DNA of 64,000 bases, taken from Catajapyx aquilonaris. Lineage: Eukaryota. The translations under genes and the position numbers were made by a program. Below the pieces are notes generated by a model, which was given only the letters and a program-made list of their open reading frames with translations, did not search any database and had not been told where the DNA came from. The first letter of the stretch is position 1; each line of letters opens with the position of its first letter. Shown piece by piece: positions 32,301 to 64,000 of the stretch. The stretch lies in assembly GCA_000934665.2 (NCBI GenBank), contig KZ538243.1, positions 1 to 64,000 of the forward strand, in the 5' to 3' direction.

Positions 32301-35300
32301 GTACGTCTTTACTATACTGTAGTAGTGAACCAGTTGACAAAATTTGGCAACACTGCCCAGCCTGCCCCCCCACTTTGTCGTAGTGTGATATGCCACAACC
32401 AGATGGCGCGCACACTACTCCCACGCCAAGTGGTAACAATGGTAACTACATGCACTTAGGTGATGAGTCAACGCATGTTACCCCAAGCCAATTTTTATAT
32501 TTCATAATATTTAATTTCATCATAAATTGTTATATTTTCAGATTTGAGCTTCCAGTGCTTAGGCGACTGGCCAGGACCAAACAACCAGCGATACCTGGCC
32601 TTACTGGACACCCAAGCAGGATCTGAATCTGAACAAAGGCCTCGGTACCGATGCGCGGTGAGTATTCCCAAGACCCTTTTTACTTGCAAACAAAGTGTCC
32701 AAAAATTCTGGTCTGGTTTTTGGAATGAAAAGCGGTCTGGAAAGGCAACCGGCCGTAACAAGAACATCTCGAACTTGCCCAACTTCCGTGGAGGAACGAA
32801 GCAAGATTTCTCATTACGAGCAGAAAGTGGGGGAAAAAAGCACAAGATTGAAATCCCGGACATTCCTTTCGTGTTATGGCTTTATTGCGCTATTATTGTA
32901 CTCATCTTGCCATAGTGTGCGAAGTGGGATGTTGCGTTATAGTGTGCTAATTTCCACATTTTGGTTTTTTAAGCTGTACAGAGAAGAAGTGGGTACAGGA
33001 AGGATATACCTGGCCTTCTCCAGCGATTCGACTTGCCAGAATCAGCTACGTAGTGCCAATGATGGATATGAGATGCTTCAATTGATGGCTGTTGCTGCTC
33101 CTTCTTTACCAAGAGAGGTGCAGAGCAGCCCTTGCAGATTTCCAGAATGGGCGCAGGGTCACTGGGAACATTTGTATGTCGATGGATCCAATCTGGTGTA
33201 CAGGGACCTTCGAAATTTCAAGACCTACACAGGAAGATGTATTGGACCTAATCATGGAAGCAGCGAGCATTTTCCAGTGTACATGAGGACTCAATGGTGT
33301 GTGGCTAATGTATTTTATTATTATGCTTACGTTATACACATTACATTGAAACATACTGACACCGTCTGTTGTGTTGCAGTGGAGACGAGTTTTACAATTG
33401 CATCAGGATGAATGAAAGAGGCATCAATGTGCTGGAGTTTCAACTTGGTAAGATCTGTTCATTATTCTTTACATTGCAAAGTGTAACACTCTGTACTTCT
33501 CAGGTGTAATTCCAACAAACAACTACAATGAGAGTCTGTGCAGGGATCAACGACAGTTCATAAACAGGAATTGGATCACACAAGGGAGGAGAGACATCTT
33601 CCAAGAGTCTCCTTGTCCAATAGCAGGGGAATACACTGGAATCATTCCTGATGCTGATGGCCTGTGCGCCAAGTTGTCTTCGGATTGCAACAATCCTGAG
33701 ATCATGTTCTACTCCGTGTCCAACTGCTATGACCGCACCGAGGTTTATGAAGGTAAGGACAGGTCTTGCATGTCTGATGGATGTTGACTAATGTACATAA
33801 CAAGGGTGGGCATGCTCTGTAACATACCGTAACTTCTTGACGTTCTTGTACATTTTGTGTAGATGTCATTTCCGTAGTGGTTTTTGGGGTACGTTCTGTT
33901 AACTCTGTCTATAAAATTTCCAGGAAAGGTTCAGTACCCTCCTTCAGTCCCTACCCTTCCTCCGGCTGGATACTTTCGACAGCCTCGAAGACGAATACGA
34001 AGAAACCCGTCTTCCACTATAGCTCCAAAAATAGTTGTCGAAAAAAACGAGCCCACCATGTACGATCCATTTGTATACAACGGATACAGAGCAGGATCTC
34101 GTTCACTTCCGAGCCCCGTTTCCACACCATCAACCTCAACCACCACAACCACAGAATCCACCACAGAAACCAGAGATCCCATCATGGAAAGCGAATCCTC
34201 TCAGATCCACCAAAACACCTCTGTTCAAACCAACACTTCAGAACCAGTTTCATACGATCCTTACGATTTTAACGGATACCCATCCAGAGGCTACTACCCT
34301 CCACACCAACGTTGGACCTCTTCGTACGACACCCGGTACTCGTACCCAGACTACGAATACAGACCCCCAGCTCCTATGTACGACTCCTCTTCTGACTCTC
34401 CTGTACCTTCGACTCCTTACCCACGTCTAGATCCCAGAACAGATCGGATTAGACCTTACGAAGCAGGATTTGTACCTTCTAGTCCTTCTTCTGTTATGCC
34501 CACCCATTTTCAAAGAACTACGACGTACAGACTATCTTCAACTTCTCCTCTTCACTCCTCTTTGCCACCATTGGACCAACCTCCTGCTTCTCCACCTCGA
34601 CAACCCTCTTCTTTCTTCAGAGTCCGTCAACCTTCTCTGCCTCAACCTACCACACTTCCTCCACGTCGACAGTCTTTTCGAAAACCAGACACGACCACCA
34701 CACCTCCTCCAACACCTCCATTGTTGTACCCAAAGTTTTCTCATCAACGTGCGCCTCATCCGGATGAAGAAAATCGGCTGGATGATAGTGAGTGGTAGAC
34801 GGATTGTTAAAGGTTGTGGGTTTGTGTGGGGAAGATTGTTCTGTTGCTTGTTGGGTACTTGGCTCACACTCTTTGGTGGTGGTTCTTCCTGTCTTTGGGT
34901 GTCAATGCTAACTACTGACTCTATGCGTTATTCAGAAGACACGATGCAAATTTCGAAGGCATATTTGCACCTTTTGCATCCCCACATTGCAGCAAGCTTT
35001 TCACCAACACCAGCTTGACTTCAACGCAACCTGGCATCAAATTATCAGATAATCCTCCTAAGGGTCCAGAAAAGTCTCCCCTAAAAATTAGTGACCTCCC
35101 AAATAGAAGAATGGTTGAGAAAGGAGACGAAGGTCGCCTCTCCCACCCACACTCTTGAAAGTTAAAAAAAAAGAAGGAATGAAGACATTTCCTTGGCCTC
35201 TGGGAGGTCCGTACTGGCCGACAGAGAGATAATTTCCTCCGCCCCGTTCAGATGTCTCAGACTGGTGACAGTGACAAACAGAGCCGGTTCTCGCCTCTGG

Positions 35301-37062
35301 GGCTCACTTTTCAAATTTAGAACCTTTCAAAAAACTGTAGGATGCTGTTTCATCAGCCGGCGTCCTTTTTACACCATCAGTCCGATGCGAATAGTGTTCC
35401 CAAATTGTAAATATAGACAAGTCCGTGACGTTGAAAACACTCAAAATCCTTCTCCAGAAGTTGCAAGTCAGACCCTCTCCTTCTAACAAACCGGACAGGA
35501 CAAAAGGAGAAGGTTGAGATTAAACGCGGGACATCCCAGCCATGTTTCTAAGGTGACAAATGGGGCAGGGCAGACTTTTCTTTTCACACACACACACACA
35601 AAAAAGAAAAAGGTAGGGGGTGGTGGACGAACCAAATTCCTTCGTCGGGGTGGCACCCACAGAGGCGCGAGGAGCTCCCAGGAATGTCAGGAAGAAGCTC
35701 CTGTTGCCTCCTGTAATTTATCACGTTTTTCTTCAGAGATAAGCCGCACGGGCGATGGTGGGACAGGGGTCTTGATCGGGACGAATTCCTTTCGGATGAT
35801 GGAGATTAAGAAGGATAGAAAAAAATATATTGGTGTCAGACGCCAACTTGTCCAATGGAATTTTCGCACAATAATTTTGGCAGAAGATATGTCCAAATAA
35901 AATAACATTGGCCAAGGGCTAATTGACGGACGAAAATTTATTTAGAGGAAACCGTTTTTGGCACTGATTGCACTCACCTAGAATCATATTGACACCGATG
36001 TTACCAGTCGCCAACAAAAGCCTTTGTCTTCACCATTCAATGTGACACGTTCACTGCACAGTTGCTATCCAGTACAGTGTGTGACATATATTTTGACACA
36101 ATTTTTCCTCCACAGAGCGAGAGTATCGTTGCCTCGGACAATGGGAAGAGAACGGAGTCACCTACACGTACACTCAGCGTCGTGATGTCTTTGGCTACGA
36201 GTGTTTCGTCGGATCAGTTGTCAACGACGGTGAGATTTACATCAAGGAAGCTGGAACCAACTGCCAGAGAGGAATCGAGCCTCTCAAGTTTGGGATGAAG
36301 CTGACCAGGCAGGGAACCGCGGGGTCATGCTTCGTGCCCAGACCCACAGGTCCTGCTCGAGATGGGAGTGACCCTCGACCCAATGTGGCACCGACGCAAT
36401 GGCCTCCAAGGGGAAGGTTGCCTGACAGGACGACCAAACCGTGGCAGCCTATCAGAGGTTCGTAATATACTCATAGGGGGTCATGGAAACCAAACCTGGA
36501 CAACCAAACAAGCAACCATTGCCTATATTTATAAATGGGTATGAAATGTGTGTAAAATTAGTACGAAATGGGCACGAAATGGGCATAAAGTGGACAAACA
36601 AACAAACTTTGCCTCATAAATAAAGAGAGGAGCAGAGGCAGCCACTCCATCTATTGCATGTGGCAGGAGGCTTCTTTTATCCGAACTGGCAGCCGGCGCC
36701 ATCCGGTCTCATATGCCGTAACTCCAAACTTTTGAAAAACTCAAATTTTGGGGGTTTATGCCCAAAAAAGTGTGGCTTTCAGACAATTTTCTCAATCACT
36801 GTCTGGCTTACTATCAGTGTGCCAAGTGTCAGGTCTCTCTGTAGTCTGGTAGTGGGTTAGGATGACCGGACAAACATGCAAACTTTATCCTTTATATAAA
36901 TAGAGATGTAATATAATTATTTGTTCAATGAATAACTTTATTGCCCTTATGCTTTCAGGCCAAACTCAGGGACATGAAGCCAAGCCTTCATCGGCGTGCA
37001 AGCCGGTGGGCCTGGGCTTAGTCATCGCCATTGCCGTTGTATCGACATCTCTGTGGTGGTAA
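14314..37062 (+). CDS. 11-exon gene for a secreted, probably GPI-anchored Cys-rich repeat protein (arthropod DUF7044/DUF7042/DUF7043-like family); 607 aa without and 895 aa with exon 9
   Basis: Exons with GT-AG ends and matching phases: 14314-14374 (signal peptide MVYRCWFSAVVLVILASVPS), 27843-28029 (CYFPAEYQGEF), 29931-30106 (CVRCFQLQLLSRNVLQV), 32103-32300 (YCPLNGRFRFTY), 32542-32657 (FQCLGDW..RYRCA), 32974-33296 (CRFPEWAQGHW), 33380-33447, 33504-33752 (CPIAGEYTG), 33924-34787 (P/S/T-rich), 36116-36457 (REYRCLGQWEE), 36959-37062 (SSA..GLGLVIAIAVVSTSLWW*). The sum without exon 9 is 1824 nt with no stop. The family name comes from motif recognition, not a search. Confidence 0.85.
16500..16603 (-). 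repeat. dispersed repeat copy 2, inverted relative to 11531-11635
   Basis: CCCACTGGAGGCGCTGCC...GAACGGGAGCCAATCAGAAGC...AGCCAATCAGAATCCTCGGTCAT is a reverse-complement match to copy 1. Confidence 0.7.
19036..19139. repeat. minisatellite, about 5 copies of a ~22-bp unit (TTGCTCAGAACAAGCCAAAGAA-like)
   Basis: CAGAACA recurs every 22-24 bp. Confidence 0.8.
20239..20472. mobile_element. MITE (CAG...CTG termini, hAT-like) spanning an assembly gap
   Basis: The TIRs are CAGTGACGTAGCCAGG and CCTGGCAACGTCACTG (1 mismatch). The direct repeat TTATAGT lies at 20232-20238 and 20473-20479. Internal poly-G and poly-C flank the N run at 20282-20447. Confidence 0.7.
20282..20447. other. assembly gap (166 N)
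   Basis: Run of N. Confidence 0.99.
20538..20593. repeat. perfect 18-bp inverted repeat with a 20-nt loop
   Basis: ACCGATCTGATTGGTGGA (20538-20555) pairs with TCCACCAATCAGATCGGT (20576-20593). Confidence 0.85.
23786..23980. repeat. AT-rich minisatellite (~35-bp unit TTATAGTAAAATAATGAAATAATGAAATAAAATAA)
   Basis: Direct tandem repetition is visible. Confidence 0.85.
25060..25127. repeat. (GAA)n microsatellite, about 22 units
   Basis: Seen directly; it produces spurious poly-E/K/F/S ORFs. Confidence 0.95.
26803..26888 (+). repeat. dispersed repeat copy 3 (more diverged)
   Basis: CTTCCAATTGGCTCCCATTCTGCGCCTGCGCAATAGGAAGAGAGAGCGCCTCTGGTGGG matches the 3' half of copy 1. Confidence 0.6.
30777..31551. 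mobile_element. degenerate Tc1/mariner-type MITE in intron 3; related solo TIR at 29057
   Basis: The left end is TA|CAGGGTGATGCATT...GGTTCAACAGG. The right end, reverse-complemented, is TA|CAGGATGGTGCACTGCCCCAATCACGGGTTCAACTGG. Position 29057 reads CAGGGTGATGCATTGCCCAAGTCACCTGTTCAA. Confidence 0.55.
33924..34787 (+). CDS. 864-nt Pro/Ser/Thr-rich (mucin-like) candidate cassette exon of the 14314-37062 gene
   Basis: It has a ttccag| acceptor and an |gtgagt donor, phase 1 at both ends, and 288 codons open in frame (ORF 33884-34798). Confidence 0.7.
36490..36907. mobile_element. possible Helentron/DINE-like non-autonomous remnants in intron 10
   Basis: There are repeated GGACAA(A/C)CAAACA tracts. 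One is followed by AACTTTATCCTTTATATAAATAGAGAT, which resembles HINE/DINE-type ends. Confidence 0.35.
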
Positions 37063-47695: not shown

Positions 47696-49494
47696 TCAAC
47701 ATAAATTCCCAGACTCCAAAAAACTCTTCATAAAATTGGAAATCTCTTCCGCTGTCGACCTTTCCTTAGGGTCGTGTTTGCACATCATCTTCAGCAGCTG
47801 CTGCCTATGGGTGTCGTTGTGAGGCTCAAATTGCTCAGGTAAATAATCATCCTCAGTCTTCAATCTGGAGAAGTTGATAATTAACTCGTGGTCTTTGAAT
47901 ATGGCGGAAAAAGGTGTCAGTCCCTCGAAGAAAATCGCGCCAAGAGAGAAGATGTCAGTCTTACGACCATATCTACTTCCAGTCCACTGCTCAGGACTCA
48001 CGTAGTTAGTAGTGCCTAGGTATTTCGTATGGTCCACATTTGAGAGGCTGTGTATCGGAACTCCTGCCACTTCTTTAGTAATTCCAAAATCGGCTACTTT
48101 TACCAGATCGTTAGAGCACAGCAATATATTTGCAGGCTTTAAGTCTCTATGCATGAACATATTGCTATGAATGTACTGAACTGCTGACACAACTTGCCTG
48201 AAGTATTGCATGAACTTGTCACTGTCCACGTTGTACCTCTTCCTATCAATATACTGTTTCAGCGTATCATGTTCGCAAAGTTCCATACTAATGTACAAAT
48301 AACGGGAATTTCTACCGTAGAAGCTGTACTGACTTGCATCAAATTGACGTTTCAGGTATCTGGCATCCCAAGCTATTTGATCATCTCTATCTGCATTCTC
48401 TATCCAAGACTCAAAATATGTTATGATGTTCTTGTGCTTCAAAGTTTTCATTGCTTCTACTTCTCTCATCATCTTATCGATGTCTTTTTTGCTAAAAGGA
48501 TCTGATGTGTTGGGATTAGTTTCAGCCAATCGAATACGTTTGATGGCGCTCCCCTGATCCTCCCTTCTGTCCAATACTTCGAAGACCACCCCACATGCAC
48601 CACTTCCGAGGTAGCCTTCAACCTTAAATGTCTTGTCGCAGTAGCCATCTTTGATGGGGATATCGGATGGACAACTTTCCACGCTGTAAATGATTATGTA
48701 GTTATTAGCAGTTATTATTAGCACCGTTATTAAGATATGCTGGTATTCATTTCAAACTGTAAACTTAGAATTATTTTTATTTTCTCACCCTTTTTCATTT
48801 TCCTCCAATATTTCAGATAAATGATTGGGGCTGCAAAGAGAACGGACACAATAAGAGACTCATCATCACCGTGCGTTGTTGTCATCTTCGTCATTAATTT
48901 ATGAGCAAGATGGGTGCATTTCATTGCTCGTAATGAACAAATGAAGATGTTATACTTTTTGGCAGAATATAGCATCCTAGGAATTGGCAAGCAATTCATT
49001 TCAAAAGTTATCATATTTTTACAGGCATTTAAAAACTATGGCAAAAGTTAATGGATATTTATGTCATTGCTTGGAAAGGTACACTGATTTTACTATTTCG
49101 TCTTTTGGCCTCACCATATTTTCTCATCCACGTCACCCTCATCATCTCCCTTTTCCAGCAGCTCCTGACTAAACTGACCACATCCACCTCCTGATGCAAC
49201 TGATATGTCACTTAAGCTATCTGTGCTGATGCAGGCACTACAACCACAAAGATCTAAGAGAAAATTACATATACAGGCACAACATTTTCCTTTGGTGTAG
49301 TACATGGTGTAGCAGAGAAGAAAACAGCATGAAATAACAACCACAAATCCTAGCGCAGAGAAAACTTCTGCAACGACAGTTATCCATGATGGTACCCTTT
49401 CAATCTCAACTACATTTTGTTTCGTGAAGTTGTCGACGAGATCCACGGATCCGTTTTCATCAGCACCGAGATAGTCGACTGGCCCGGTTGCCAT
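47696..49494 (-). CDS. K1: single-pass membrane eIF2-alpha-kinase-family protein (PKR/PERK-like domain), 455 aa, intact
   Basis: Exon 49494-49115 (MATGP..NGS..NFT.., TM WITVVAEVFSALGFVVVISCCFLLCYTMYY, then KGK and a Cys-rich stretch; TG|gtgagg) splices in phase 2 to kinase exon 48683-47696 (988 nt). Motifs: GSGACGVV, AIKRI, MREVEAMKTLKHKNIITYFESW, YLYISMELC..TLKQYI, HRDLKPAN, DFG, HTKYLGTTNYVSPEQ, KTDIFSLG. The YLYIxMELC and HT...GT..YxSPEQ signatures are typical of eIF2-alpha kinases. The start codon is inferred. Confidence 0.85.
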
Positions 49495-50637
49495 TTGAAA
49501 CGAGGGCCTTTTTGTATCCAAGGTCTCTGTGGTTGAAGCTGTAAATTTTTTTTTAAATGTATAACCCTTCGGGCTCCGTCACATTGGGCCTACTGCATAT
49601 CAGTCACACATTACGTACCTGAGGAATGGTGGTTATAATGGTTATAGTGACGGAATGGTGGTATAATAATTGTGCCGCACACATCAAAGGCGATCGATCA
49701 TTTCAAATTGTGGTTTTGTTTGGTTGCACGGAACGAACTACTAGTAGTCATCTTGCGATGACCCCTTGTTGTGTGTCCTGCTGATATTAGCCAGTCTGAA
49801 ACTCATAAGAAAAGAGACTGCTGGTATAGGGGCCGGAGACTTAACTTTACAGTCCCCCACCCTTCACTCCCAGCCAATGCAGCAGAGGTGTTACCGGCAG
49901 AATATTGATCTGAGCAAGACAGAAAAAGTGTAGAAAAGTAACACATAGAATACATACTGTATGTGGAAGAAATGCTTTTGTTCAATCATGGATGGATGCA
50001 AAACATTGATTATTAGATTAATGTCCAAAAAATGATATAATGTCACAGTCTCACATACCTGGTATTGCAGAAGGCGCCTTCCACAAAACGACTGACTCAT
50101 GTCTCATAATATTATCAATCCGACTCTTCATCAACAACTAGATAAAAAAACTGCATATTTCCTAAGAATCTTTTATAGATCACTCATGCACAACTTGTTT
50201 TATACCCTTACTGATAGCAGATTATGTTGTGCACCCCAACTTATAGCCTACTAAAATGACGTTACATTTACAATAAGTTGCAATTAAGAAATTCGTTATG
50301 ATGTTATTGAAACAATGAACTCTTACCATGACATCCCGACTTCCCGAGTTATCAAAAAGGAAAAGCTGTTAATCCGATTACGTGATAATGATAATCTTAT
50401 CATTCCAGGAAATAGTTTTTATAAGCGACACATTCAAGTCTACTGTAATGCAGTCTTTTTATGTGGTGTGTAAAATGTATTCCCACAACTGTAGCCTGCA
50501 GGACGTTTACTTGGAATCTGAAATTTTCTGCAAGGTTTATACGAAGCGTTTAGTTATAAGGCTTATGACTGTCATAACTCCAGTTTCCTCACATTTTACT
50601 GCATGGTCATATCTAGCAAACAGCATATTGTACCATA

Positions 50638-50993
50638 GGGGGAGGTGTGGTGGCCGGGATGGTAACATCTCGGCTTGCTGAGTGAAAGGTCCCAGGTTCG
50701 ATCCCCGCCTGGGAGTTCCCTTCCACCTGCGTCGGGAGGGTCTCTGACCTGCACCTTGGAGGTGTCTGGCAAACTAACCTCCTGGGGGACTGCACATGGC
50801 CCAAACTTGAGACATTGCACCTGCACCCCTGTCCCCTCCCCGAAAATCCCTATATCCTTACCTAATGTCCTTGTTTCCTTGCACCGGAGATTGAAGTTAA
50901 CAAATCAGAAAATTGATGGTGGTGTGCCACCCCACAAAAGGGCCTATGGAGGCCTATAATGGGGTAAAATAAGTAAATAAATAAATAAATAAA
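50638..50993 (+). mobile_element. full-length tRNA-derived SINE, family A
   Basis: A/B boxes (GGTTCGATCCC), a (TAAA)n tail and a 13-bp TSD ATATTGTACCATA at 50625-50637 and 50994-51006. Confidence 0.9.
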
Positions 50994-51441: not shown

Positions 51442-52610
51442 GAATTTTCCACGAGCCACTCCATATAAGTGTTTTCTGAAATTCGGAACTTCAATATATG
51501 CACATTGAATTTCTATGCAATTGGTGCGAATTTATTGCCATGAAACATTTATGCAGAATGGTCACCTCTTTCAGATGCTAATTTTAACTCTAATGTTTAA
51601 TTTTTCACATGTAAATGTAAATTGGTGAATTTTCGAGTCTTTTTCGATTGTATTCAGCATTTTCAGGAGCGAAAATTTCCAAGTCTGTGAGGATGGGTAC
51701 TGACTTGATCAAGGACTTGATCTTTCTGTTAGGGAACCCCAGCGTGCATTATTTGGTTTGTCGACAATACTGACACAGTGTTATATGATGTCACCTTTTT
51801 GACATAGTTATAGTGACCGGGTTAAGAATGATAACAATGTTATTGTTATTTTTGGAATGTGGAAAATTGGAGTATAGGCGTCGATGGCAAGTAGCGAGGG
51901 GAGCGATACGTTGACATTTTTATCGGTATATTTTATTCTTGATGCATATTTTAATATAGCCTAATAAACATTTTAAACACGAGTATATGATGATGAACAC
52001 ATCTTTTCATACTGAAGGGCGATCTTACGGATGCCCGGAACGGTCACGTCTCACATTAATAATTATTATTGTGCCGCACACTAAACATCAAAGGCGATCA
52101 ATCATTTCAAATTCCCCGTCAGCGCACCGAAAGTGCATATGTGTAAATAAATTGCACTGCAGTATAATCACGTATATTGGTACAATTAAACTGATGGCAT
52201 ACTTCAATGTCGCTAACTAAATTCCGTTGGAAATGTATAGCCTTCTATTTTTGATACACTCTAAGAAATGTCTTGGATAAAACAGGAATTGTCATTAGTT
52301 TCACTTTTCAATAGTTCATAACATTTGCAGATATGAAGCTCGGCACAAAATGATTTCATTTTCGGTTGTCATATATTGTCCTTTATTAGCATGTTCAGTT
52401 TCATCAAGCCATAATTATCACCTCGCAAAGTTCTCGTGTCAGGAGACTCTGTAGCAAGTTGGATTACGTTTGTGCATTGTGGTGATTTACTTTAGGAGAA
52501 ACTCATGGCAACCATGTAGTCTATGTGTAAGGCTAGCAGCAATGACCTCCCTATGCAAAAATGGTTTAGGTTTTCAAATGCTTATTGGTAGACATAAGAA
52601 GAATTTATCA

Positions 52611-52924
52611 CCGAAGCAGTAGTGGTGTAGTGGTATGGTGTCCGACTGCTAATCGGGAGGTCCTGGGTTCGAATCCCGGAGGCCGGCGACCCTGACCATG
52701 GTTTTCTGTGGTTTCCCATGGTCCTTGCAGGATAATTCCGGGGTCGTTACCGTAATATAGGCCACAGCCGCCTCCTTACTTCCCTTTCCCTGCTTCAATC
52801 CGGTGATGAGAAAAATAGTAAAAATGGAAGAGATCCAGACAAAAAATTGGGAGAAATCCCCCCCTAGGAAAGCCCGTAGGCTGATAATGGGGTATCAAAT
52901 TATTATATTAATTATTAATTATAT
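52611..52924 (+). mobile_element. full-length tRNA-derived SINE, family B
   Basis: The head is CCGAAGCAG..GTGGTGTAGTGG..GGGTTCGAATCCCGG and the core is GGTTTTCTGTGGTTTCC..AGGCCACAGCCG. The 16-bp TSD TAAGAAGAATTTATCA lies at 52595-52610 and 52925-52940. Confidence 0.9.
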
Positions 52925-53479
52925 TAAGAAGAATTTATCAGAGAGAGAAAGAGAGAAAGAGATGACCTGAAGGGTGTGGTGGAAGAACTTCATAACCCTC
53001 ATTTTTGGCAATATTTTTTTTACCTGAACACGTACCAATTAATTATGTATAAAAAAAACAAACATGACAAACAGTTTGGTATTCTCCAAGTTCAGGTATC
53101 ATGCACGATACGGCAACACGGAAAAATATATCAAAACCCACATGCCATATATGATTTGTGATAAGAGTGCAAACTTCAGTTTGCTGTCATGAAAAGTCAT
53201 ACTTTTAAGGGTTATGAAGTTTTCCCACCACACTACTGATCATAATGTATGTTCGGCACATTCAATCAGCAATATTTTTTATTCATTTGCAGAGCTGTTC
53301 AGCAGGGTTTATCATCCAGTACACGCAGCCCTGCAGCCAGCGGAATCGTAAAGGGTGAAATGTACTACGAGTCTACAAAAAATATTGACTCGATATGATA
53401 CAAAGCGGTACGTAGTACATCTTGTCACTTCCTCTGCAGGTAGCTGTTTTATTATGGACCCCTTTAAATATAAGACATG

Positions 53480-53482
<3 letters not shown>

Positions 53483-53562
<80 letters not shown>

Positions 53563-53901
53563 TATTGTACCCCGGTGGGTTTAAAAAACCTTTGGGGGGA
53601 GACGACTGGTTACATTGTAAATATAGTTACTAACATTATTGCTAGTTGGGTTTTTGGCGTAATACGTAATTACAGCTTTACATCTAAAGGGGGAAACATC
53701 TTAACATATTTGATAATTTGGGAAATATGTATGAGGTTTACAAAATCGCTGAAGACGTTATGCTGCAACCATGCACTTGCTCACATGCCTCACTGTCAGA
53801 AAATTTTGGAGGTTGTAGAAGTTGTGTCCATCGATATTATTTGTCATTGCGACCGTGTTTAAGTTTGGTGCTGGCGGAAAAGAATGTAAAAAAATTGCTC
53901 G
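53483..53901 (-). mobile_element. 5'-truncated non-LTR retroelement with a (TAA)n tail, inserted just downstream of the K2 stop
   Basis: The 13-bp TSD ATAAGACATGTAT lies at 53470-53482 and 53902-53914. The + strand has (TAT)n at 53483-53565. The paralogous K1 3' flank (47631-47670) lacks the insert. Confidence 0.8.
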
Positions 53902-53965
53902 ATAAGACATGTATCAAAACAACAATACCAAAATGAAACCTGTAATGCCTGTAATGTAAGTCACG

Positions 53966-56813
53966 TTAACATAAACCGCCAGACTCCAAAAAACTCTCAA
54001 TAAAATTAGCCACATCTTCTGCTGTTGACCTGTCCTCAGGGTCACGTTTGCACATTTTATTCAGCAGATGCTGCCTATGGATGTCGTTGTGCCGTTTAAA
54101 TTGCTCAGGTAAATAATCGTCCTCAGTCTTCAATCTGGAGAAGTTAATAATTAACTCGTCGTTTTTGAAAAAAGCGGAGAAAGGTGTCAGTCCTTCGAAG
54201 AAAATCACGCCAAGCGAGAAGATGTCAGTCTTACGACCATATCTACTTCCAGTCCACTGCTCAGGACTCACGTAGTTAGTAGTGCCTCGGTATTTCGTAT
54301 GGTCCACATTTGAGAGGTTGTGCATCGGGACACCTGCCACTTCTTTAGTTATTCCTAAATCAGCTACCTTGACCTGATCATTAGTACACAGCAATATGTT
54401 TGCAGGCTTCAAGTCTCTATGTATGAACATTTTGCTATGAATGTACTGAACTGCTGACACAACTTGCCTGAAGTATTGCATGAACTTGTCACTGTCCACG
54501 TTGTACCTCTTCCTATCAATATACTGTTTCAGCGTATCATGTTCGCAAAGTTCCATACTAATGTACAAATAACGGGAATTTCTACCGTAGAAGCTGTACT
54601 GACTTGCATCAAATTGACGTTTCAGGTATCTGGCATCCCAAGCTATTTGATCATCTCTATCTGCATTCTCTATCCAAGACTCAAAATATGTTATGATGTT
54701 CTTGTGCTTCAAAGTTTTCATTGCTTCTACTTCTCTCATCATCTTATCGATGTCTTTTTTGCTAAAAGGATCTGATGTGTTGGGATTAGTTTCAGCCAAT
54801 CGAATACGTTTGATGGCGCTCCTATGACCATTGCTTTTGTGCTGCACTCCGAATGCCACTCCAGATGCACCAACTCCAAGGAATCCCGAAATCTTGAATG
54901 TCTTGTCGCAGTACCCTTCTCGGATGGAGACAACAGATGCAGGACTAGAGTTTCTAAGCATGTGTAAGATGCATAACATTATCACTTTGAAACATACTAA
55001 TGAAAGGACAGTACAGCAGAAGTATCACTAACTAAAAGCTTACCTTGATTCATTTTCTTCCACTTCCTCGGTTGAGACGTTATAACAGTAAGTTAAATAA
55101 ATCATATGGCATATTTATAAATTTTATCGAGTACAGTATACTGTAATTAATACGTAAGAGCGCATAAAAGGAAGAGGTATGAAAGGAAGTAATTAACATG
55201 GCAAATGTAAGTGAAAATTGCTGTTTTTGAAATGTTCTTGCAAAATTATTTAGTACCTCTGGAACTGTGCTTCATCACGTTCTGCTGTACATCTGGACCC
55301 TTCGCCTTGTCCCTCTAAATTATCTTCAGAGGAGATTCTGAAATTCAGAATGCAGCAATATTAAAATATTGGCAATGTGGCGGTAGTAAAAATTTAGAGC
55401 ATTCCCTCTTTAGTAATTGCGAATTTCAAATATGAAATTATCCAAACTGATTTTATCCATGTCGATGTCATTAAGGATTTGCATGTTATCTTATTACAAT
55501 TGTCATATTATAATTATGGGAATAATAATATTCCATACATTGCGGGTTATCCCTCTGGCAGATGCCTTGTGCAGATGAGTCTGGAGTGCTCCTGAACTGG
55601 AGGTTGCAGCAAGCAAATCATAGAGCTTTACCTTGCTCTCACTATCAACTGTGAATTTACTCTGACAGTGTAGCCTACTTACTATCTCTAATGGAAACCG
55701 GTTTAGTATGAAAAATTCACAGGATGGAACAACACTGCACATTATTTCAGAAAATTCTTCCAACAAATCTTTAGGATAAGTATATATGATATACCATTCT
55801 GAAGAAGAGAGGATAACTTTATGTTTGAGGGGAAGGGTCATTTAGCTCCTCCAAGCTAGGTTACAATATAATTATTTTCGTGATGAGTACCGTAATTACT
55901 GTGATTACAATTAAATTTGAAGTGAAAATGTATCTATGAAGTGTTAATTGCTGTCACTACTAATCCCTTACAATCATATTATACTATAGTTGACGGCAGA
56001 GGAAGCATAATTATTGTGTCAGACGCACCTCATGCGTGGTAGGATGCAAGCCTTCAAGGATATGTTAAACTACATGGCAAACAGTCAATTATCACATCGT
56101 CAGTAACGAGCCTGCAGAGACCAAACGGCGCCTTTGCCTAAGTGATTTTATGGTAAACATAAATTCGCCCTAAGGTTTGTCGGAATCCTTATGAAACACC
56201 ATGAAGGCTACGGTAGGCTACTATATCACATTTTAAGAATATAGTGTGCAATATTACTCTATAGCTCATAATATTCTCAGTCTCTGACTCTCTGGAACAG
56301 AAAGAAACAAATGCTCCCAATGTATTACCTGTTACTGATACCCACTATGAATCGCACCGTCTCATCCTGGTCGTGTTTAACAGCAAGAGAACGTGGAGTC
56401 TCGGATCTGTCGTTCATTCTCTCGACATCAGCGCCGTATCTTATAAGCATTCTTAAAACCACTAATCGTCCATTCTTAGCTGCGTAATGAATCGGTGTTG
56501 ATCCCTCGTTGTCCTCTTTGTCCACCTGGCCCCCCCTTTTGATAAGCTCCTCACAAATTTCAACAGATCCTGCTTCGGCTGCTAATGACAAGGCGGTTCG
56601 TCCATTGTTGCATTGTGCATTAACATCAGGGTTTTACTCGAGCAGCTTCATGCAGAAGTGCAAGTGTCCTCTTCTGGCAGCCACCATTAATGGTGTTTCA
56701 TATTCGTTGTTTCTTGCATCGACATCTGCTCCGTTTTCCACTAAACTGGTTATAAGGTTCGCTGATCCACGTACTGCTGCCTCCAGTAGACATTGACTCA
56801 TGTTGGACGCCAT
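53966..56813 (-). CDS. K2: ankyrin-repeat + eIF2-alpha-kinase-family fusion gene (517 codons); kinase exon open, one in-frame TAA in the ankyrin exon
   Basis: Exon 56813-56329 encodes 4-5 ANK repeats (LLEAAVRG..NGADVDARN; ETPLMVAARRGH; GRTALSLAAEAG; GSTPIHYAAKNG..YGADVE) and ends AG|gtaata. It is followed by linker exon 55337-55257 (81 nt) and kinase exon 54953-53966 (988 nt; HRDLKPAN, DLG, GTTNYVSPEQ). All junctions are phase 2 and in frame. The TAA is at 56636-56634 (codon 60). Confidence 0.75.
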
Positions 56814-57979
56814 TTGAAGCGGCCTTACCTATCTGGCTCGTATCGGAAGTGCTGCACCTGTGAAAGAGTTTTACACACAAAAATTGTAAAATGGCCAGAC
56901 TACCTCCTTTCAGCACAATTGAGTTGGTCGGTGAATGAGTTACAAAGAGTAAGTGATGACAAGCAGCATAGAGTTATTTTCTATCCCAATGTAGCCATTA
57001 TCAATTATTCAATTCGAAGAACCGCTTCCTATTTCTGCTGTGATAAGGCTCTCAGCAGTCCATGGTTAATCCCATCAGTTAGCTTGAATTGATGTATAAC
57101 AGATTATAGACCATACCCAGCCTGCATAAGGATAATATACTTCGTTAATAAAAACATTATCTTCCAATCTCATACAGACTCGTAACATTACTATAGGCAG
57201 CATTATCTTCACGATAAATGCCTTGGTAATGACTAATGAGATATATTACTGGTCTTGAAGGCTGTTCTCCCGCAGTACCATGTAGGAAATTTCCTGCAAA
57301 ATACTGTACAGCGTACAACATCCTGCACAGATACTTGTACAGTATTTGTTATTCTTTCACAATGATTAGTTACCGTTGAGGGATAGATACAGTTTCTTTC
57401 ACAATGATACCGTATCCCTCAGCAACTGGCAAACACAGCTTCAGGTGGATATAATTATGTAATAAATAATAATTTACCTCATATTACGTATATCTCTTTT
57501 TTGCATACCGTAGACGGTTTTCAAATATCTTGCCTTCAACCATACGTTATGCACACCTTGTCAAATAAATACATTATCTTCGCCCCCCAAAAATGCTACT
57601 GAAGTCATAAGGGTGAAAGGAAACAAATGCCTTACATGCAAGGGACTCTCATGATTTCGGTTGGTTCCTTTTTCAAACTTATGCCGTGCGTGCAGTCACA
57701 GTTCGGTAGAATACAATCAGGAAACCAATAACGTCACTGGTGAGCCGATTATTATTTTGCTAGCCAACAACAGAGAGGCTATTTGTAAATTACTTACCTC
57801 AACAATACGGCTACAGTCATAACCAGCTTCTAAATCTTAACCGCTATGTTGTGAAACTGAGAGACAGGGGATATCAACACCCTTATCGACAGCGTTGACA
57901 AATTTCTCACAAACTTGTACGTATGGCGTCTGAGTTCTAAGTCGTAGATTTTAGATGTGTATACATGTATTACTTTCCG

Positions 57980-58028
57980 CTTCTGCTAAAAGATAAGATG
58001 CTGTTGAACATCATCTTTTTAGCAGAAG
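57980..58028. repeat. short imperfect hairpin
   Basis: CTTCTGCTAAAAGAT..GATG pairs with CATCATCTTTTTAGCAGAAG. Confidence 0.6.
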
Positions 58029-58472
58029 AGTGGACCATGCTGGAAATGACTACCAGGAAGTATCTGCTTTCAGACTGGCAAATAGGTTTTCAAATTCTCG
58101 GTAAAGATAAGAGGAATTTATCAGAGATCTCCTGACCCTTCATTATTTTTATACCATATATGCACGCTAATGGTCGCCGATTTTTTGTTAATTCACAGAA
58201 CTGATTATATGAACAACTACACCAGTCATTATCATCATCTGGTGTAAATAATAGACATCCTTGCAGTCAGAGAAATTATACCACGTGGAATAATGTGACA
58301 AGCGTCTACAAAAACGTATAGTCATTCGATATGATAAAAAGTACATGCTACTGCACAGTACATTTCCTTTGCAACTCGTAACGAGGCAGCTGCTTTATTA
58401 TGAACCCCATTAAATATGTGACTCTTACCAAATCCTGGTACAACAATATCTTGCACATGTCTATAAGTCAGG

Positions 58473-58748
58473 TTAACATAAATAGCCAAACTCCCCAAAA
58501 AAAAACTTTCAAATCAAATTAGGCACATCTTCTGCGGTTGATCTTTCCTTACAGTCACACTTGCACATCAACTTCAGCAGCTTCTGCCTGTGGATGTCGT
58601 TGTGCTGTATAAATTGCTCTGGTAAATAAAATAATGTCCTCAGTCTTTAATCTGGGGAAGTCAGTGATCAACTCCTTGTTTGAGAATGTTGGCGGAAAAA
58701 GGTGTCAGTCCTTCGAAGAAAATTGCACGGAGCGAGAAAATGTCAGTC
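58473..58748 (-). pseudogene. K4: frameshifted C-terminal remnant of a K1/K2-like kinase exon
   Basis: It matches the K1/K2 3' ends at the nucleotide level (AAGGTGTCAGTCCTTCGAAGAAAAT, CCTCAGTCTT.AATCTGG, TTGCACATCA.CTTCAGCAGC, stop context TTAACATAAA). It contains indels and no N-lobe. Confidence 0.85.
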
Positions 58749-59050: not shown

Positions 59051-60876
59051 TCAATATTTAATGTCAAACTCTTTGTCAATGTAATTAGCAACATCTTCCA
59101 CCGTTGGCCGTTTCTTAGGGTCACATTCGCACATACTCTTCAACAACTTTTGCCAATGGGTGGGATTGTGATTTGCAAATTCTGCAGGCATGTAGTCGTC
59201 CTGGCTTTTCAACCTGGTAAAAATTATGCTCAATTCGCTGCGTGAAAACGTACTGGGAAAAGGTGTCAGGCCCTCGAAGAAAATTGCCCTTAGAGCAAAG
59301 ATATCAGTCTTCCGGCTGTAATTAGTCCCAGTAAGTTGTTCAAGACTAATGTAATCGATAGTTCCTGTCTGCTCAGTGTGGGCCATGTTTGAGAGGCTGT
59401 GTATTGCAGCTCCAGCAACAGCCTTCGTCACTCCAAAATTAGCTACTTTCACGTGATCATCAGTGAACAGCAGTATGTTTGCTGGCTTCAGGTCTCTGTG
59501 CATGAATCCTTTCCCATGGATGTACTGAACTGCTGACACAATCTGTCTAAAGTATTTCAAGAACTTGCAGCTGTCCACCTTTGACCTATTGGCTTCAATG
59601 TACCATTGCAGGGTATTCTTTTCACAAAGCTCCATCCTGATGTACAAGTAGATTGTGCTTCCATCTAAAAAGTTGTACTGATTCACATTAATTGAGTTCT
59701 TGACGTTTTCAACATCCCAAGCCCTTTGCTCGTGTGTGCCAGATTTTTCTAACCAAGATTCATAGTATGACACAATTGTTTGTGCTTGAAGTCTTTCATG
59801 ACCAATACTTCCCTCATCATCTGCTTCATACTACCTTTGTCACCTGGTTGTGATGGCAAGGATTTCTGATCCACACAAATTCGCTTAATTGCACTCTTTC
59901 GATGTGTGACTTTGTTAACTGCTTTGAAGACTACTCCGTATGCACCACGACCAAGATAATCTTGACTCTTGAACGTCTTCTCACAGTAACCATTTTTGAC
60001 TGGTATAATTCCTGCTGGTGCTAGACTTTTCCTGTGAAAATACAGTGATATCCAAGGAACATAAACTTGGAATTCTCATCAGTATCATACCAACTATTGC
60101 GTTTATGTACATACATTTACTTCGTGGCTTTGTAGACAGCCAGTGCATAATTTTCCATCTCATTCAAAAAGTACTGTAGCAGAAGGCTACATTACACATG
60201 AATCAGATTCAATATGGCATGTTAGCAGGGATCAAGTTGCAAATAGATTAGGCCATAATGATGTGATTATTTGAAAGCAAATAAAATTACATTTTATAGA
60301 CTCTGGTAATAAAGTGCAGTATTTCTGGCTAATAAAATATTGAGAGCTGACAGAGAACACTTACACCTCTTCAAACTTCTGTGAGACAGGTCTTGGAGCT
60401 TTCTTGGTCTGATGCCATAACCTGCAGATAATTTAGGTTTACAATACTACATGATAAGCTTTAGTCATTTTTGATATTTTTGGCCATGTGGCCAGAAAAC
60501 TTGGCCTATGATCTACGACCTAAGTTATGTAAGCTGCACAGAAATTCGACTCACACATTTTGACCTTGCCTGGAATCTATCATGACCGTCTGAGTGGGTC
60601 CATTTCAGATTATCAGATACTTCTTAACCAGGTTCTCAGATCCGTCGCTTACTTCATCATGGGTTTTACCACCAAAGGAACCATTAACAACTTCTCTACA
60701 TGCTGCTGCATTACAGTTTTTAGCTTCATAAGTATTATAACCAACAGTAAATGGTGTAGTAGCCAAATGGTGGATTGTGCCCACCTTAGATTTTTTAAAT
60801 AATATTGGGAGGCCACCAGTTGCCATTATGATGATCAAACAAAACATTTGTTGAAGTCATAAGACATAGCACAGAC
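59051..60876 (-). pseudogene. K3: more divergent eIF2-alpha-kinase-family paralogue, pseudogenised
   Basis: The kinase exon 60031-59051 (phase-2 acceptor; GRGAYGVV, SAIKRI, MMREV) has a 1-nt frameshift near 59777, DFG changed to NFG and SPE changed to SLE. Linker exon 60421-60365 is 57 nt, phase 2-2. Upstream exon 60876-60555 encodes MFCLIIIMATGGLPILFKKSK.. with an in-frame TGA at 60607-60605. Confidence 0.8.
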
Positions 60877-61780
60877 CTGGAAGATAACAAATTAGGTATA
60901 TGCCCTGTGAAGCTGGTGAACAACTTGGTACATTACGACATACTGTACCTGCTGCGTGGCTGAGGAAGGCATAACTAATGCAGTGCAACACTTGCACTCT
61001 CTCCCAAATATACTGTTTAAACTATCAGGAAAAATCAAATAGTGATAAAGATACTGTAGGTGTGCCAGTCTATTATTATAAGATAGCTTGAGTTATTCTG
61101 GTTGCTCCAAAGTTGACATGAGGACTATTCAGGAAGGACATCTGATTACTTGAAGTATGTAAACTGCTATTCCATATAACCTTATGTGCAACTGTGCAAG
61201 TGCAGTGCACTACTTTTCTAAATTACGCTTAATTTAATGTAATGTGAAGTGACTGATTGCAAGTTCTCTGTAAGAATGTACTGAAAATTTCAGTTCACGT
61301 AACCTATGCAGCTATTGTTATTAAGACTTTCTTAGTAATGGCAATAATAGTGATGACATTTGGAATTTCAAAGATGCAGCTGAAACAGAACTGCAGGTTA
61401 CACTGGCACTTCCTCATTCCAGGTATTTTCAGCTTATTGATATTAAGAGATAATGCAGACTGTGAGATACTAATAAACACGAGGTCATAGTTATGATGAC
61501 AAAAAAAAAATTGAAATGCTTAAGCATAACATGGCGAAATGATTGGCTTCTGCAGATATCAAATTAAGGCATTTACTGCAGCTAGTAGTGAAGCAGCATT
61601 TCACTGCGGCAATTTCGATTCATTAGTGTGTACTCTGTGCTCTGTGCATATCATTTCCAATAATAATAATTGATGAAAGGTTGAGTACATGATAGGCAGA
61701 GCAACTTAAAAATTATCACAAGCCTGCTGCATATTACATGTATTACAGAACAATAACAAATATTATGGTCCTACGGTACA

Positions 61781-62010
61781 CTTTAATTGATATTTAAGGA
61801 GGTTGGCCCAGCATTTGCCATTCAACCTCCAAGGATAGGGAAGGAAGGAAGCGGCTGTGGCCTATTATACGGAAGCGACCCCGGAATTATCCTAGAAAGA
61901 CTGTGGAAAACCACAGAAAACCACGGTCAAGGTTGCCGGCCCCGGGATTTGAACCCAGGACCTCCCGATTAGCAGTCGGACGCCTTATCCACTATGCCAA
62001 CCTGCTTCGG
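61781..62010 (-). mobile_element. tRNA-derived SINE with family-B head and core but a different 3' tail
   Basis: It has the same CCGAAGCAG head and core as 52611. The 15-bp TSD TGGTCCTACGGTACA lies at 61766-61780 and 62011-62025. Confidence 0.9.
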
Positions 62011-62970
62011 TGGTCCTACGGTACAGTGATCTTCAATTTCATGGACTGAGTCGTATAAAATTGTAATATCACATTCTGCTGATAGATTTAACTACTGGAC
62101 AATGATAAAATAAACCAAGGCTACTGCTGAGTCAATGTGTGTGGCATCCTCAGATATGGTATAACATTGCACTGTGCAAACTGAACTAAACAGGTGTCCT
62201 TCACAGTCATGTCATTGCCACTCCTTTATTGACATACACGAATATCAGCATGCTTCTACTTACAAGATGTAACAGGTAATGCTACCTTTACCAGATCCTT
62301 TTTTATAATTATTCTGCCTCATATATTGAAAATCTATTCACAATTTCAAATACTGTAACCCTAGGGCATTGAAAACGCCCCTGCAGATAAAATTGACGGA
62401 ATCGCCCAATTTAAACATAGTAGCAGAGTATTTCAGATGCATTCCAGTATGACTCTGCTTGCATTGTGTGGCGCCAGGTTGACAGCGCACATAGAAATGA
62501 GAGGTGACCTATTTTCTTTCGGTACACCCTGACCAGGTGGCCATACCCACTGGAAGGAAGCTCTCAGTGTCCACCTGTCAGAGATACGAACTACTCTGTA
62601 ACAAAATCAGTCAATTAAGGTCCTTCGATACATCAAACTTGTCTTTAGAACTGAATGGGTCCACTACATACAGGTCTCACAGTATTAATTTAATAATTTT
62701 AAAATATGAATAGGGCCTGCGAGGCATAGCATAGGCAGTTATTAGTGCTTCTAGGTCTGTGATACAGCAAGAAACCTTACGTCCATGGGCAGGGTAAAAT
62801 GCAAGGTGCAGATGCAATGTCGGTCTGGGTCACCAAGGGTTTGGTACGGTTTGGAACCACTAGTTTTACCTGATAATGTGAACATCCTTTTGGCAATTAT
62901 TTTAAGGTAATGAAGACAAACTCCTCACATTAAAAATGCACTTGCCTTCTCAGTTTTAATTAAAAGCAGT

Positions 62971-63834
62971 TTATGTGTTACTTCCATCACCCAATACAAC
63001 TTCCTCAACTTTCCCCTCCTTCTTTCTTCTTACGGCTTCTTCATATGGTGGGTGTATTGGAACCTGTGTTGGTTCATGATACTCATACTTCTTCTCCCCA
63101 ATTTCCAAAGGATAGGTCACATCAGAATCCCATCCACTCAAGTCTCCACACACAACAAATGGGACAATCTTCTTGTTAGGTCCTTCTAAGGCATTCAAAT
63201 CCAACTGGTCATTACCCAGCAGAGGGTTCAGCATTGTCGGTATGTATCCTTCCGGTGGTGAATACTTACGACAAACGACAAATGCTTCGATGCTCGAGTT
63301 CCTCGAGCTCTTAGGTTTACAAATGGAGACGTCTTTAAAAAAGCAATGCATCTGTGCATACAGCGGGGTCATGTCCTTGCCTCTGAACATCTTGGCCACA
63401 AACGAACCATTTGGTTTCAGTATATGCGTGGTTATGTTCAAAGCAGCCAACAAGAGCTGCGCCTGCACATATATATCCATGCTGTGGTAGCCAGTCACAT
63501 CCGGAGCACCATCGGATACTACAAGATCAGCCTTCTCACCCTCAAAGTGTCCAATTATTTCCTGCGCCGTGGACAGCTTGGTGATGTCACCTTGCAACTG
63601 GATTACTCCTGGAATAGGCGACATGGACTGCAGGTCCACTGCTACTATTTTGATCATCCTAGGGTCAGCCGCAGCACCTCTGAAAATGAGATCCCATTCA
63701 GTTACTCCAGTCACAAAAAGCAAGCAATCCTGGCCCTTGAAAAGTCCACTGGAAGTGAACTTACCGCAACTTCTTTGACAGGACTTGGCTCCAGCTTCCT
63801 GGTGCCGCACAGAGGTCGACCACTCTGGTAACAC
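62971..63834 (-). CDS. FTSJ1: tRNA (cytidine32/guanosine34-2'-O)-methyltransferase FTSJ1/Trm7, last two exons (5' part outside the window)
   Basis: Exon 63834-63765 ([23 protein letters not shown]) splices to exon 63679-62971 ([81 protein letters not shown]). These are diagnostic Trm7 motifs. Confidence 0.93.
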
Positions 63835-64000
63835 CTGAAACATACAATCCAACTTTACTTTCAGGAACTGCCCACGAGCACTCAATCTTAGTGTCATTGT
63901 CTTTACGTGCTGATCTTATGATGCAATGTGCAGAAACTTGCATATGGCCTAAGAAGGTGCCCAATATTACATTTTTTAAATGCATAAAAATCATTTAGGC

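Follow-up and report, generated by a model that had tools for sequence, protein, structure and literature searches.

An ankyrin-repeat exon ahead of an eIF2-alpha-kinase-type domain in Catajapyx aquilonaris: an apparently new architecture in a copy that is likely non-functional

The kinases that phosphorylate eIF2-alpha (the eIF2AK family) are defined by what their N-terminal regions sense, namely heme, double-stranded RNA, Z-form nucleic acid, unfolded protein or uncharged tRNA. A different protein, the pseudokinase RNase L, carries N-terminal ankyrin repeats before its kinase-fold domain and acts in the antiviral shutdown of protein synthesis. According to the available portions of two articles, PKR and fish PKZ were born by domain shuffling onto an existing eIF2AK (PMC11305385; PMC7137213), and PKR is reported solely from jawed vertebrates, with its origin by shuffling placed there (available text of PMC11305385). 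Here we analyse a 64,000-nucleotide (nt) stretch of the genome of Catajapyx aquilonaris (assembly GCA_000934665.2, contig KZ538243.1, positions 1 to 64,000; hereafter the window, to which all coordinates refer), the minus strand of which carries three kinase exons, named K1, K2 and K3, and one kinase exon fragment. At K2, an exon encoding ankyrin (ANK) repeats lies upstream of an eIF2AK-type kinase exon. The explanation that we prefer, with a probability of roughly 55%, is that this architecture is real and that the assembled copy of K2 is a young null allele or a pseudogene; as assembled, K2 is likely non-functional.

K2 is predicted to be a three-exon gene encoding five ankyrin repeats, a short linker and a complete kinase domain of the eIF2AK family. 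The first coding exon (56329..56813, minus strand, as are all K2 features) begins with an ATG at 56813-56811 and ends at a GT donor following 56329, and the upstream limit of its open reading frame (ORF), at 56828, is an in-frame stop just 5' of the ATG. The exon matches the Pfam families Ank, Ank_2, Ank_4 and Ank_5, both in its 3' part (Ank, 1.2e-18; Ank_2, 2.1e-18) and in its 5' part (Ank, 1.3e-08), and by eye its repeats can be read as an N-cap, three canonical repeats and a C-cap. A 991-nt intron with GT..AG ends (55338..56328) leads to a linker exon (55257..55337; 81 nt, 27 codons, phase kept), and a second predicted intron (55257>54953; 90 nt, GT..AG) leads to the kinase exon (53966..54953). 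The latter is 988 nt long, with 328 open codons covering the whole eIF2AK-like kinase domain (Pfam Pkinase, 6e-50), a short tail and a TAA stop ~10 residues past the domain. The frame is kept across both junctions, and the predicted joined coding sequence amounts to 1554 nt, or 517 codons plus the stop. Much of this had been put forward in an earlier, sequence-only reading, which described four to five ankyrin repeats spliced in frame through an acidic linker to an open kinase exon with DLG in place of DFG. We find five repeats, with Ank matches on both halves of the exon, the open kinase exon and the DLG (54361-54353) as described, and the coordinates, the frame and the first junction also agree; the linker is only mildly acidic (7 Asp or Glu versus 4 Arg among 28 residues), and the proposed in-frame product is interrupted by a TAA at codon 60.

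Transcript evidence was drawn from a single public run (X1, data type not on record), represented by contigs at depth 3-6 that contain 45% of the sampled words of the stretch and were mapped on positions 53700-58300. Cover at the K2 locus is continuous over 53700-55026, including the 3' flank, and is present at 55267-55337 and 56329-56617; neither intron 1 (991 nt) nor the region upstream of 56617 has any cover. One contig (contig 8, 360 nt, depth 4) contains the junction 56329>55337: it comprises 289 nt from the 3' part of the ANK exon (56617-56329) and, as its shorter side, 71 letters of the linker exon (55337-55267), and the skipped sequence has CT..AC ends on the plus strand, that is, GT..AG on the minus strand. 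The exon-following cover and this intron-skipping contig indicate that the X1 data are RNA-derived. Furthermore, K2-specific contigs on the kinase exon show 0 differences from K2, including in stretches where K2 departs from K1, and two contigs with 16 and 11 differences from K2 have the K1 identity at 16/16 listed places. Hence, contigs can be assigned to K1 or K2, and both genes are represented in X1 and distinguishable. The K2 locus is transcribed, and its ANK exon is spliced toward the kinase exon at the first junction.

The interruption of K2 lies in this same ANK exon. An in-frame TAA (56634..56636) occupies codon 60 of 517, directly behind the second helix of ANK repeat 2, and translation from the ATG as assembled ends after 59 residues; a TAA followed by A is a strong terminator. 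As the reading frame is identical on both sides of the TAA, the lesion is a base substitution rather than an insertion or deletion. The remainder of the exon contains no further stop or frameshift, and ANK repeats score on both flanks, so that the otherwise clean domain points to a young lesion. The copy would have been disabled by this single-base change together with replacement of the DFG Phe, at a locus that is still transcribed and spliced. Ways in which the stop might be avoided were considered and rejected. A mini-intron hiding it would have to pair the sole local GT with an acceptor at ~56582; this would break the frame, and X1 contig 8 reads through 56582-56617 without a gap. A variant genetic code does not fit an animal (a bilaterian) in which K2 terminates in TAA and K1 in TGA, and re-initiation could start only from the next in-frame ATG, in repeat 4, with loss of most of the ANK module.

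Comparisons of the K2 kinase domain with proteins of known structure and with large sequence collections identify it as an eIF2AK by descent. In a phmmer search against PDB, the first 19 of 1259 sequences were GCN2, PERK, PKR or HRI at 133-91 bits (17 are so named, and 1zxe and 9bf3 stand under generic names). PERK was the second-best match (122 bits), and the first match from outside the family was PLK4 (82 bits). Neither RNase L nor IRE1 was among the 60 listed PDB matches, and nor were the ANK-bearing TKL kinases ILK, RIPK4/ANKK1 or TNNI3K. The top single-domain scores, each ~145 bits, belonged to PKR-like proteins bearing double-stranded-RNA-binding domains (dsRBDs) and to a short aphid 'EIF2AK3-like' protein. 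Close relatives were not found: an exhaustive HMMER search over 1.84 billion cluster representatives returned 241 matches at E<=1e-30, whose identities peaked at 45% and in no case reached 50%, and a word-index protein search gave 86 matches with a best identity of 33% (the aphid 'EIF2AK3-like' P0001, which was also the best named). A metagenome scan for relatives returned one locus, at 26% identity, and none were found in viral contigs.

A tree of 131 C-lobe rows, chosen by likeness to K2, was built by a quick method (FastTree), with subfamily labels taken from Pfam and phmmer domains (RWD or HisRS for GCN2, dsRBD for PKR) rather than from protein names. K1-K3 grouped together (support 100) with a long stem branch (0.97), and their clade was nested in a 69-row clade (support 96) together with 14/14 GCN2-labelled and 17/18 dsRBD-labelled rows; bacterial and TKL rows fell outside. 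Within this eIF2AK clade, K1-K3 belonged to none of the labelled subfamilies: they lay outside a 19-row dsRBD clade (support 95) and adjoined an unlabelled 505-residue kinase with weak support (81). The tree thus shows family membership in the eIF2AKs, as judged from these aligned sequences, and not the exact branch. Together, the PDB ranking and the tree uphold the sequence-only assignment of K2 to the eIF2-alpha-kinase type, and the PDB matches listed above agree with its statement that the kinase is neither RNase L-like nor ILK-like.

Diagnostic residues of the domain were assessed as column counts in an alignment of 66 rows from the eIF2AK clade. A beta4-beta5 insert in the N-lobe is a defining feature of eIF2-alpha kinases, and K2 residues ~95-126 align with the corresponding inserts of PKR and PERK in HMMER alignments. 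The activation-loop Thr before SPE/APE (PKR Thr451) is T in 64/66 rows and in K1, K2 and K3, and two further residues are retained in the alignment, the HRD Asp and the Glu that corresponds to PKR E480. The alphaF-alphaG linker is short, with the same length from the FFE motif to the start of alphaG in K1-K3 and in the other rows of the clade. The available text of a mutational scan of human PKR describes Thr451 as one of the highly constrained sites (PMC11556786) and, citing Dar 2005, gives the short linker as an eIF2AK feature. Among the catalytic motifs, K2 has GxGxxG, AIK, HRD and DLG (54353..54361); K1 has all four of the Gly loop, VAIK Lys, HRD and DFG, and K3 has NFG. The DFG Phe column is F in 66/66 rows, as it is in K1 and K3, and K2 alone has Leu.

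To what extent this pairing of domains is already known was assessed through listed matches, in bounded searches rather than a full InterPro architecture query. ANK families were present in 0/86 of the listed kinase matches, the length range of which covers a 517-residue fusion, and ANK repeats occurred in 2/235 matched proteins (P0191 and P0182). The kinase domains of these two scored 36-69 bits per domain against K2 and lay outside the eIF2AK clade, and by eye one resembles a TKL-type kinase. In Pfam terms, one of the two proteins has several kinase and ANK blocks, and the other has tetratricopeptide (TPR) plus ANK repeats. Starting from the ANK exon, 294 relatives were matched, of which the best 120 were all generic ANK proteins at <=44% identity, with a kinase family in 1/120, an oomycete protein. 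The best PDB matches to the ANK exon were ankyrins, designed repeat proteins, NOMPC and TRPA1; neither RNase L nor ILK featured among the best 60 of 423. In sum, no ANK plus eIF2AK-type protein was seen among the 86, 150 and 120 listed database matches, and full-text literature searches gave us no description of ankyrin repeats on an eIF2-alpha kinase; the word 'ankyrin' appears 0 times in the main texts of PMC5851622 and PMC11305385. Hence the sequence-only suggestion that the architecture is uncatalogued stands for the listed matches and the literature found, and the ANK plus eIF2AK-type pairing is apparently a new architecture, real and transcribed.

The neighbouring kinase exons suggest how such a pairing could arise. 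K1 (47696..49494, minus strand) consists of an exon 1 with its ATG at 49494, a 42-nt mini-exon and a kinase exon (47696-48751) with DFG; its frame is open, and in protein sequence this kinase exon is 85% identical to that of K2. Exon 1 encodes ~40 residues and then a long hydrophobic stretch, probably membrane-spanning, followed by a Cys-rich and acidic tail, and no Pfam family scored above the cut-off in it. K3 (59051..60075, minus strand; 56% identity to K2) is decayed: a frameshift lies near 59773-59791, NFG stands in place of DFG, and SLE replaces SPE. The fourth member is a frameshifted exon fragment (58476..58747, minus strand) of the C-terminal ~87 codons, which tblastn recovers as three pieces in different frames just upstream of the K2 ANK exon. 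Upstream of K3, the 14 minus-strand ORFs of at least 45 residues in 60076-62960 contained nothing recognisable by eye. Between K1 and K2, mutually similar tRNA-like or short interspersed nuclear element (SINE)-like translations occur at 52570-52775 and 50596-50959, and a long (TAT)n microsatellite (53416-53633) lies just downstream of K2.

In K1, K2 and K3, the acceptor of the kinase exon is in the same phase, and 17 codons separate it from the GYC[DE]K motif that all three have in common; hence, the kinase domain acts as a cassette with a fixed 5' boundary. At the nucleotide level, K1 and K2 resemble each other only in the kinase exon and along a short 3' stretch; K1 has no counterpart of the K2 linker and ANK exons, and the window contains a single ANK exon. 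A relic of the 42-nt mini-exon of K1 is recognisable by eye at K2 (55044..55085), with a retained donor GT, an open frame and, on inspection of the dinucleotides, TG at the place of the acceptor AG; no X1 contig covers it. A 23-nt exon using the AG at 55067-55066 was also considered and was rejected, as its inclusion shifts the frame into a stop. We therefore envisage K1, K2, K3 and the fragment as tandem copies of a single-exon kinase cassette that make up a lineage-specific family in an invertebrate bilaterian. This family may have diversified by the placing of different N-terminal exons before the same cassette, a hydrophobic segment in K1 and ANK repeats in K2.

The kinase exons of K1 and K2 differ at 97/984 nt, and these differences are unevenly spread. 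A tract of 391 nt (54432..54822 in K2; 48162..48552 in K1; both minus strand) is identical, and about one-third of bases differ over the 44 codons upstream of it, a pattern that indicates, at the level of sequence comparison, recent gene conversion between K1 and K2 confined to the middle of the exon. The dN/dS ratio between the two falls from 0.82 in the first 44 codons to 0.27 in codons 174-328. When polarised by K3, 10 changes are private to K2 (2 of them in a poorly aligned part), 6 are private to K1 and 16 are ambiguous. Judged by these counts, the K2 kinase exon, DLG aside, does not look decayed, nor has its rate of change greatly exceeded that of K1.

Several observations weigh against our preferred reading, beginning with the transcripts. 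Of the two junctions that the sequence-only reading had named for a check with reads, 56329>55337 is present in the one X1 contig and 55257>54953 was not seen in the X1 contigs, so that we infer the second junction. Contig 8 stops 10 nt before the linker donor, and the 5' 196 nt of the ANK exon, with the ATG and the TAA, have no X1 cover. Moreover, contig 7 is unspliced over 54779-55026, crossing 54953 and running 73 nt inside the predicted intron. Because this contig is unspliced and the second junction is missing, a kinase-only transcript or intron retention is possible, and the intron sequence at 54954-55026 could reflect intron retention, an internal transcript start or pre-mRNA. An alternative that we regard as distinctly unlikely follows from this, in which the ANK and kinase exons lie on different transcripts: the ANK-linker part would be a short or non-coding RNA resulting from exon shuffling, and the kinase exon would encode a kinase-only protein started in or near the 90-nt intron, similar to PKR-sis of cartilaginous fishes. 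Contig 7, which ends at 55026 with those 73 nt joined to the kinase exon and no upstream exon, would fit such a transcript. The stretch has in-frame ATGs within a stop-to-stop ORF (53966-55024), and the lost acceptor of the 42-nt relic implies that the upstream structure was rearranged. Kinase-only relatives also exist among eIF2AKs, such as PKR-sis (in the accessible part of PMC11305385) and aphid proteins of 365-417 residues. Nonetheless, phase and frame fit at both junctions, for which the chance is ~1 in 3 each, and the acceptor at 54953 coincides with the conserved boundary at which the K1 cassette also begins. In addition, an unspliced linker exon would reach a stop two codons past its GT donor and would make a poor last exon. 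Contigs at depth 3-4 also lose rare forms, so the missing junction is no counter-evidence, and the uncovered parts (55027-55266, 55338-56328 and 56618-58300) carry no weight.

Further points of this kind come from the start of helix alphaG (54152..54184, minus strand), as aligned by HMMER to PERK and PKR. At the column of PKR Thr487, 61 of the 66 rows have T, 3 have S and 2 have N; Ala is found there in K1 and K2, and Ser followed by Thr in K3. A 3-residue insertion follows this position, and a second insertion, of 2 residues, lies further along alphaG; both occur only in K1-K3 among the rows shown. In the available text of the human PKR scan, Thr487 is among the few highly constrained sites and is required for eIF2-alpha phosphorylation, stabilising alphaG and inducing the change in eIF2-alpha that phosphorylation needs (PMC11556786). 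The change from Thr to Ala and the 3-residue insertion would therefore argue against ordinary recognition of eIF2-alpha, and because of them eIF2-alpha is best treated as a presumed substrate of K2. An output on eIF2-alpha is plausible, if weakened by these alphaG changes. It is possible, as a tentative explanation compatible with the others, that K1 and K2 are eIF2AKs by descent with a changed substrate, no longer acting on eIF2-alpha, in which case translational arrest would be the wrong output. The Thr487 column and the insertions in alphaG speak for this, as do the stem branch of 0.97 and the lack of a relative at 50% identity. On the other hand, several family features persist (the N-lobe insert, the activation-loop Thr, the Glu matching PKR E480 and the short alphaF-alphaG linker), K3 has the Ser-Thr pair at the Thr487 spot, and much of PKR alphaG tolerates change, as stated in the part of PMC11556786 available.

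The remaining points concern the lesion, the kinase exon and conservation. The TAA is known from one assembly and could be a heterozygous allele or a base error, gene conversion from K1 can preserve the intact appearance of the K2 kinase exon even if K2 itself is under no selection, and no K2 orthologue was found in any search, so that conservation of the fusion is not demonstrable. Here a further alternative comes in, one that we consider unlikely: K2 is intact in the living animal, the TAA is an assembly error or one allele, and binding of a ligand or pathogen protein by the ANK repeats arrests translation. DLG occurs in active kinases, for example RIPK1 and the TGF-beta type I receptors, and every catalytic residue of K2 except the DFG Phe is present. 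K2 is also a single substitution from an open frame, with the remaining ANK features whole; the locus is transcribed, with junction 1 correctly spliced, and the kinase C-lobe shows purifying selection (the dN/dS of 0.27 above). Against this, the TAA is what the assembled sequence contains, the Leu of DLG is unique versus F in every family row, and K2 has Ala at a position highly constrained in PKR (Thr487, in the available text of PMC11556786). No orthologue of the same architecture stands among the 86, 150 and 120 listed matches, and there is no evidence for any ligand. The triggering of translational arrest by a ligand or pathogen, as proposed in the sequence-only reading, accordingly found no direct evidence here.

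On our preferred reading, that of a real architecture in a disabled copy, the working of an intact K2 protein can be sketched by analogy. All studied eIF2-alpha kinases suggest that the protein would be switched on when its N-terminal module pairs two kinase domains; after dimerisation, the activation-loop Thr would autophosphorylate and the substrate would then be phosphorylated. The ANK repeats of an intact K2 could serve as a protein-binding or self-associating module that regulates the kinase, and K1 may be regulated by membrane tethering. A more far-reaching proposal, which we consider very unlikely, is that an invertebrate lineage independently built PKR-like sentinel kinases from a duplicated cassette, with a membrane anchor in K1 and, in K2, an ANK module that arrests translation on meeting a pathogen or danger protein, the TAA being a segregating null of a fast-evolving immune gene. 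In general, the locus looks like sensor shuffling in progress, with tandem cassette copies, different first exons, gene conversion and staged decay. Were there an uninterrupted ANK form that acts on eIF2-alpha, the family would gain a class of protein sensors, and the origin of new stress or immune sensors could be followed in a tractable case; if not, the locus is an instance of exon shuffling yielding a short-lived chimera, of modest interest. The interest of the locus as a whole is tempered by the interruption of the ANK copy, the unobserved key junction, the lack of an orthologue and the uncertain substrate.

The rest of the window contains spliced genes and SINE-like and microsatellite repeats at ~40% G+C, with an assembly gap represented by a run of N at ~20198-20653. 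A 314-codon uninterrupted ORF (62971-63915, minus strand; Pfam FtsJ, 5.3e-36) represents most of a gene for the tRNA 2'-O-methyltransferase TRM7/FTSJ1, with best named matches at 70-71% identity about equally among molluscs, hemichordates, a crustacean and fishes, a spread that fits a bilaterian, probably an invertebrate, lacking close relatives among annotated proteins. One long exon is not the usual form of this gene, and the ORF may be a retrocopy. A plus-strand gene (32042-36462) has exons with DUF7042, DUF7043 and DUF7045, among which lies a 306-codon ORF rich in Pro, Ser and Thr (33878-34798).

Compared with described systems, K2 shares single features with several kinases. It resembles PERK (EIF2AK3) in its N-lobe insert, and K1 resembles PERK in having a hydrophobic segment N-terminal to the kinase; unlike PERK, neither has a luminal sensor domain. 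K1 has only ~40 residues before the hydrophobic stretch, and K2 lacks such a segment. ANK repeats and a kinase in one chain are also found in TKL kinases such as ILK, ANKK1/RIPK4, TNNI3K and the oomycete ANK-kinases, and the ANK plus kinase proteins met in our searches were P0191, P0182 and P0443. The kinase domains of such ANK-TKL matches belong to a different kinase group, scoring 36-69 bits against K2 and falling outside the eIF2AK clade. In contrast to RNase L, K2 ends soon after the kinase, without a KEN or nuclease domain, and keeps its catalytic residues apart from the DFG Phe. PKR-sis and the short aphid 'EIF2AK3-like' proteins (365-417 residues) are, like K2, lineage-restricted eIF2AK kinases beyond the four canonical classes. 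They are of low identity to K2 and are kinase-only, in contrast to K2 with its ANK exon and K1 with its hydrophobic N-terminal exon; PKR-sis expressed in yeast was inert until dimerised through GST, according to the available text (PMC11305385). A further parallel lies with PKR (EIF2AK2) and fish PKZ, in which, as in K2, an eIF2AK kinase is combined with an exchangeable N-terminal sensing module, dsRBDs in PKR and Z-alpha in PKZ. PKR-like proteins bearing dsRBDs are among the best single-domain matches to K2 (~145 bits, 39% identity). K2 differs from both in having neither dsRBD nor Z-alpha by Pfam (no dsrm match was obtained in the exons of K1 or K2), in encoding its kinase within one exon and in the Ala at the Thr487 position, and its sensor would bind protein rather than nucleic acid.

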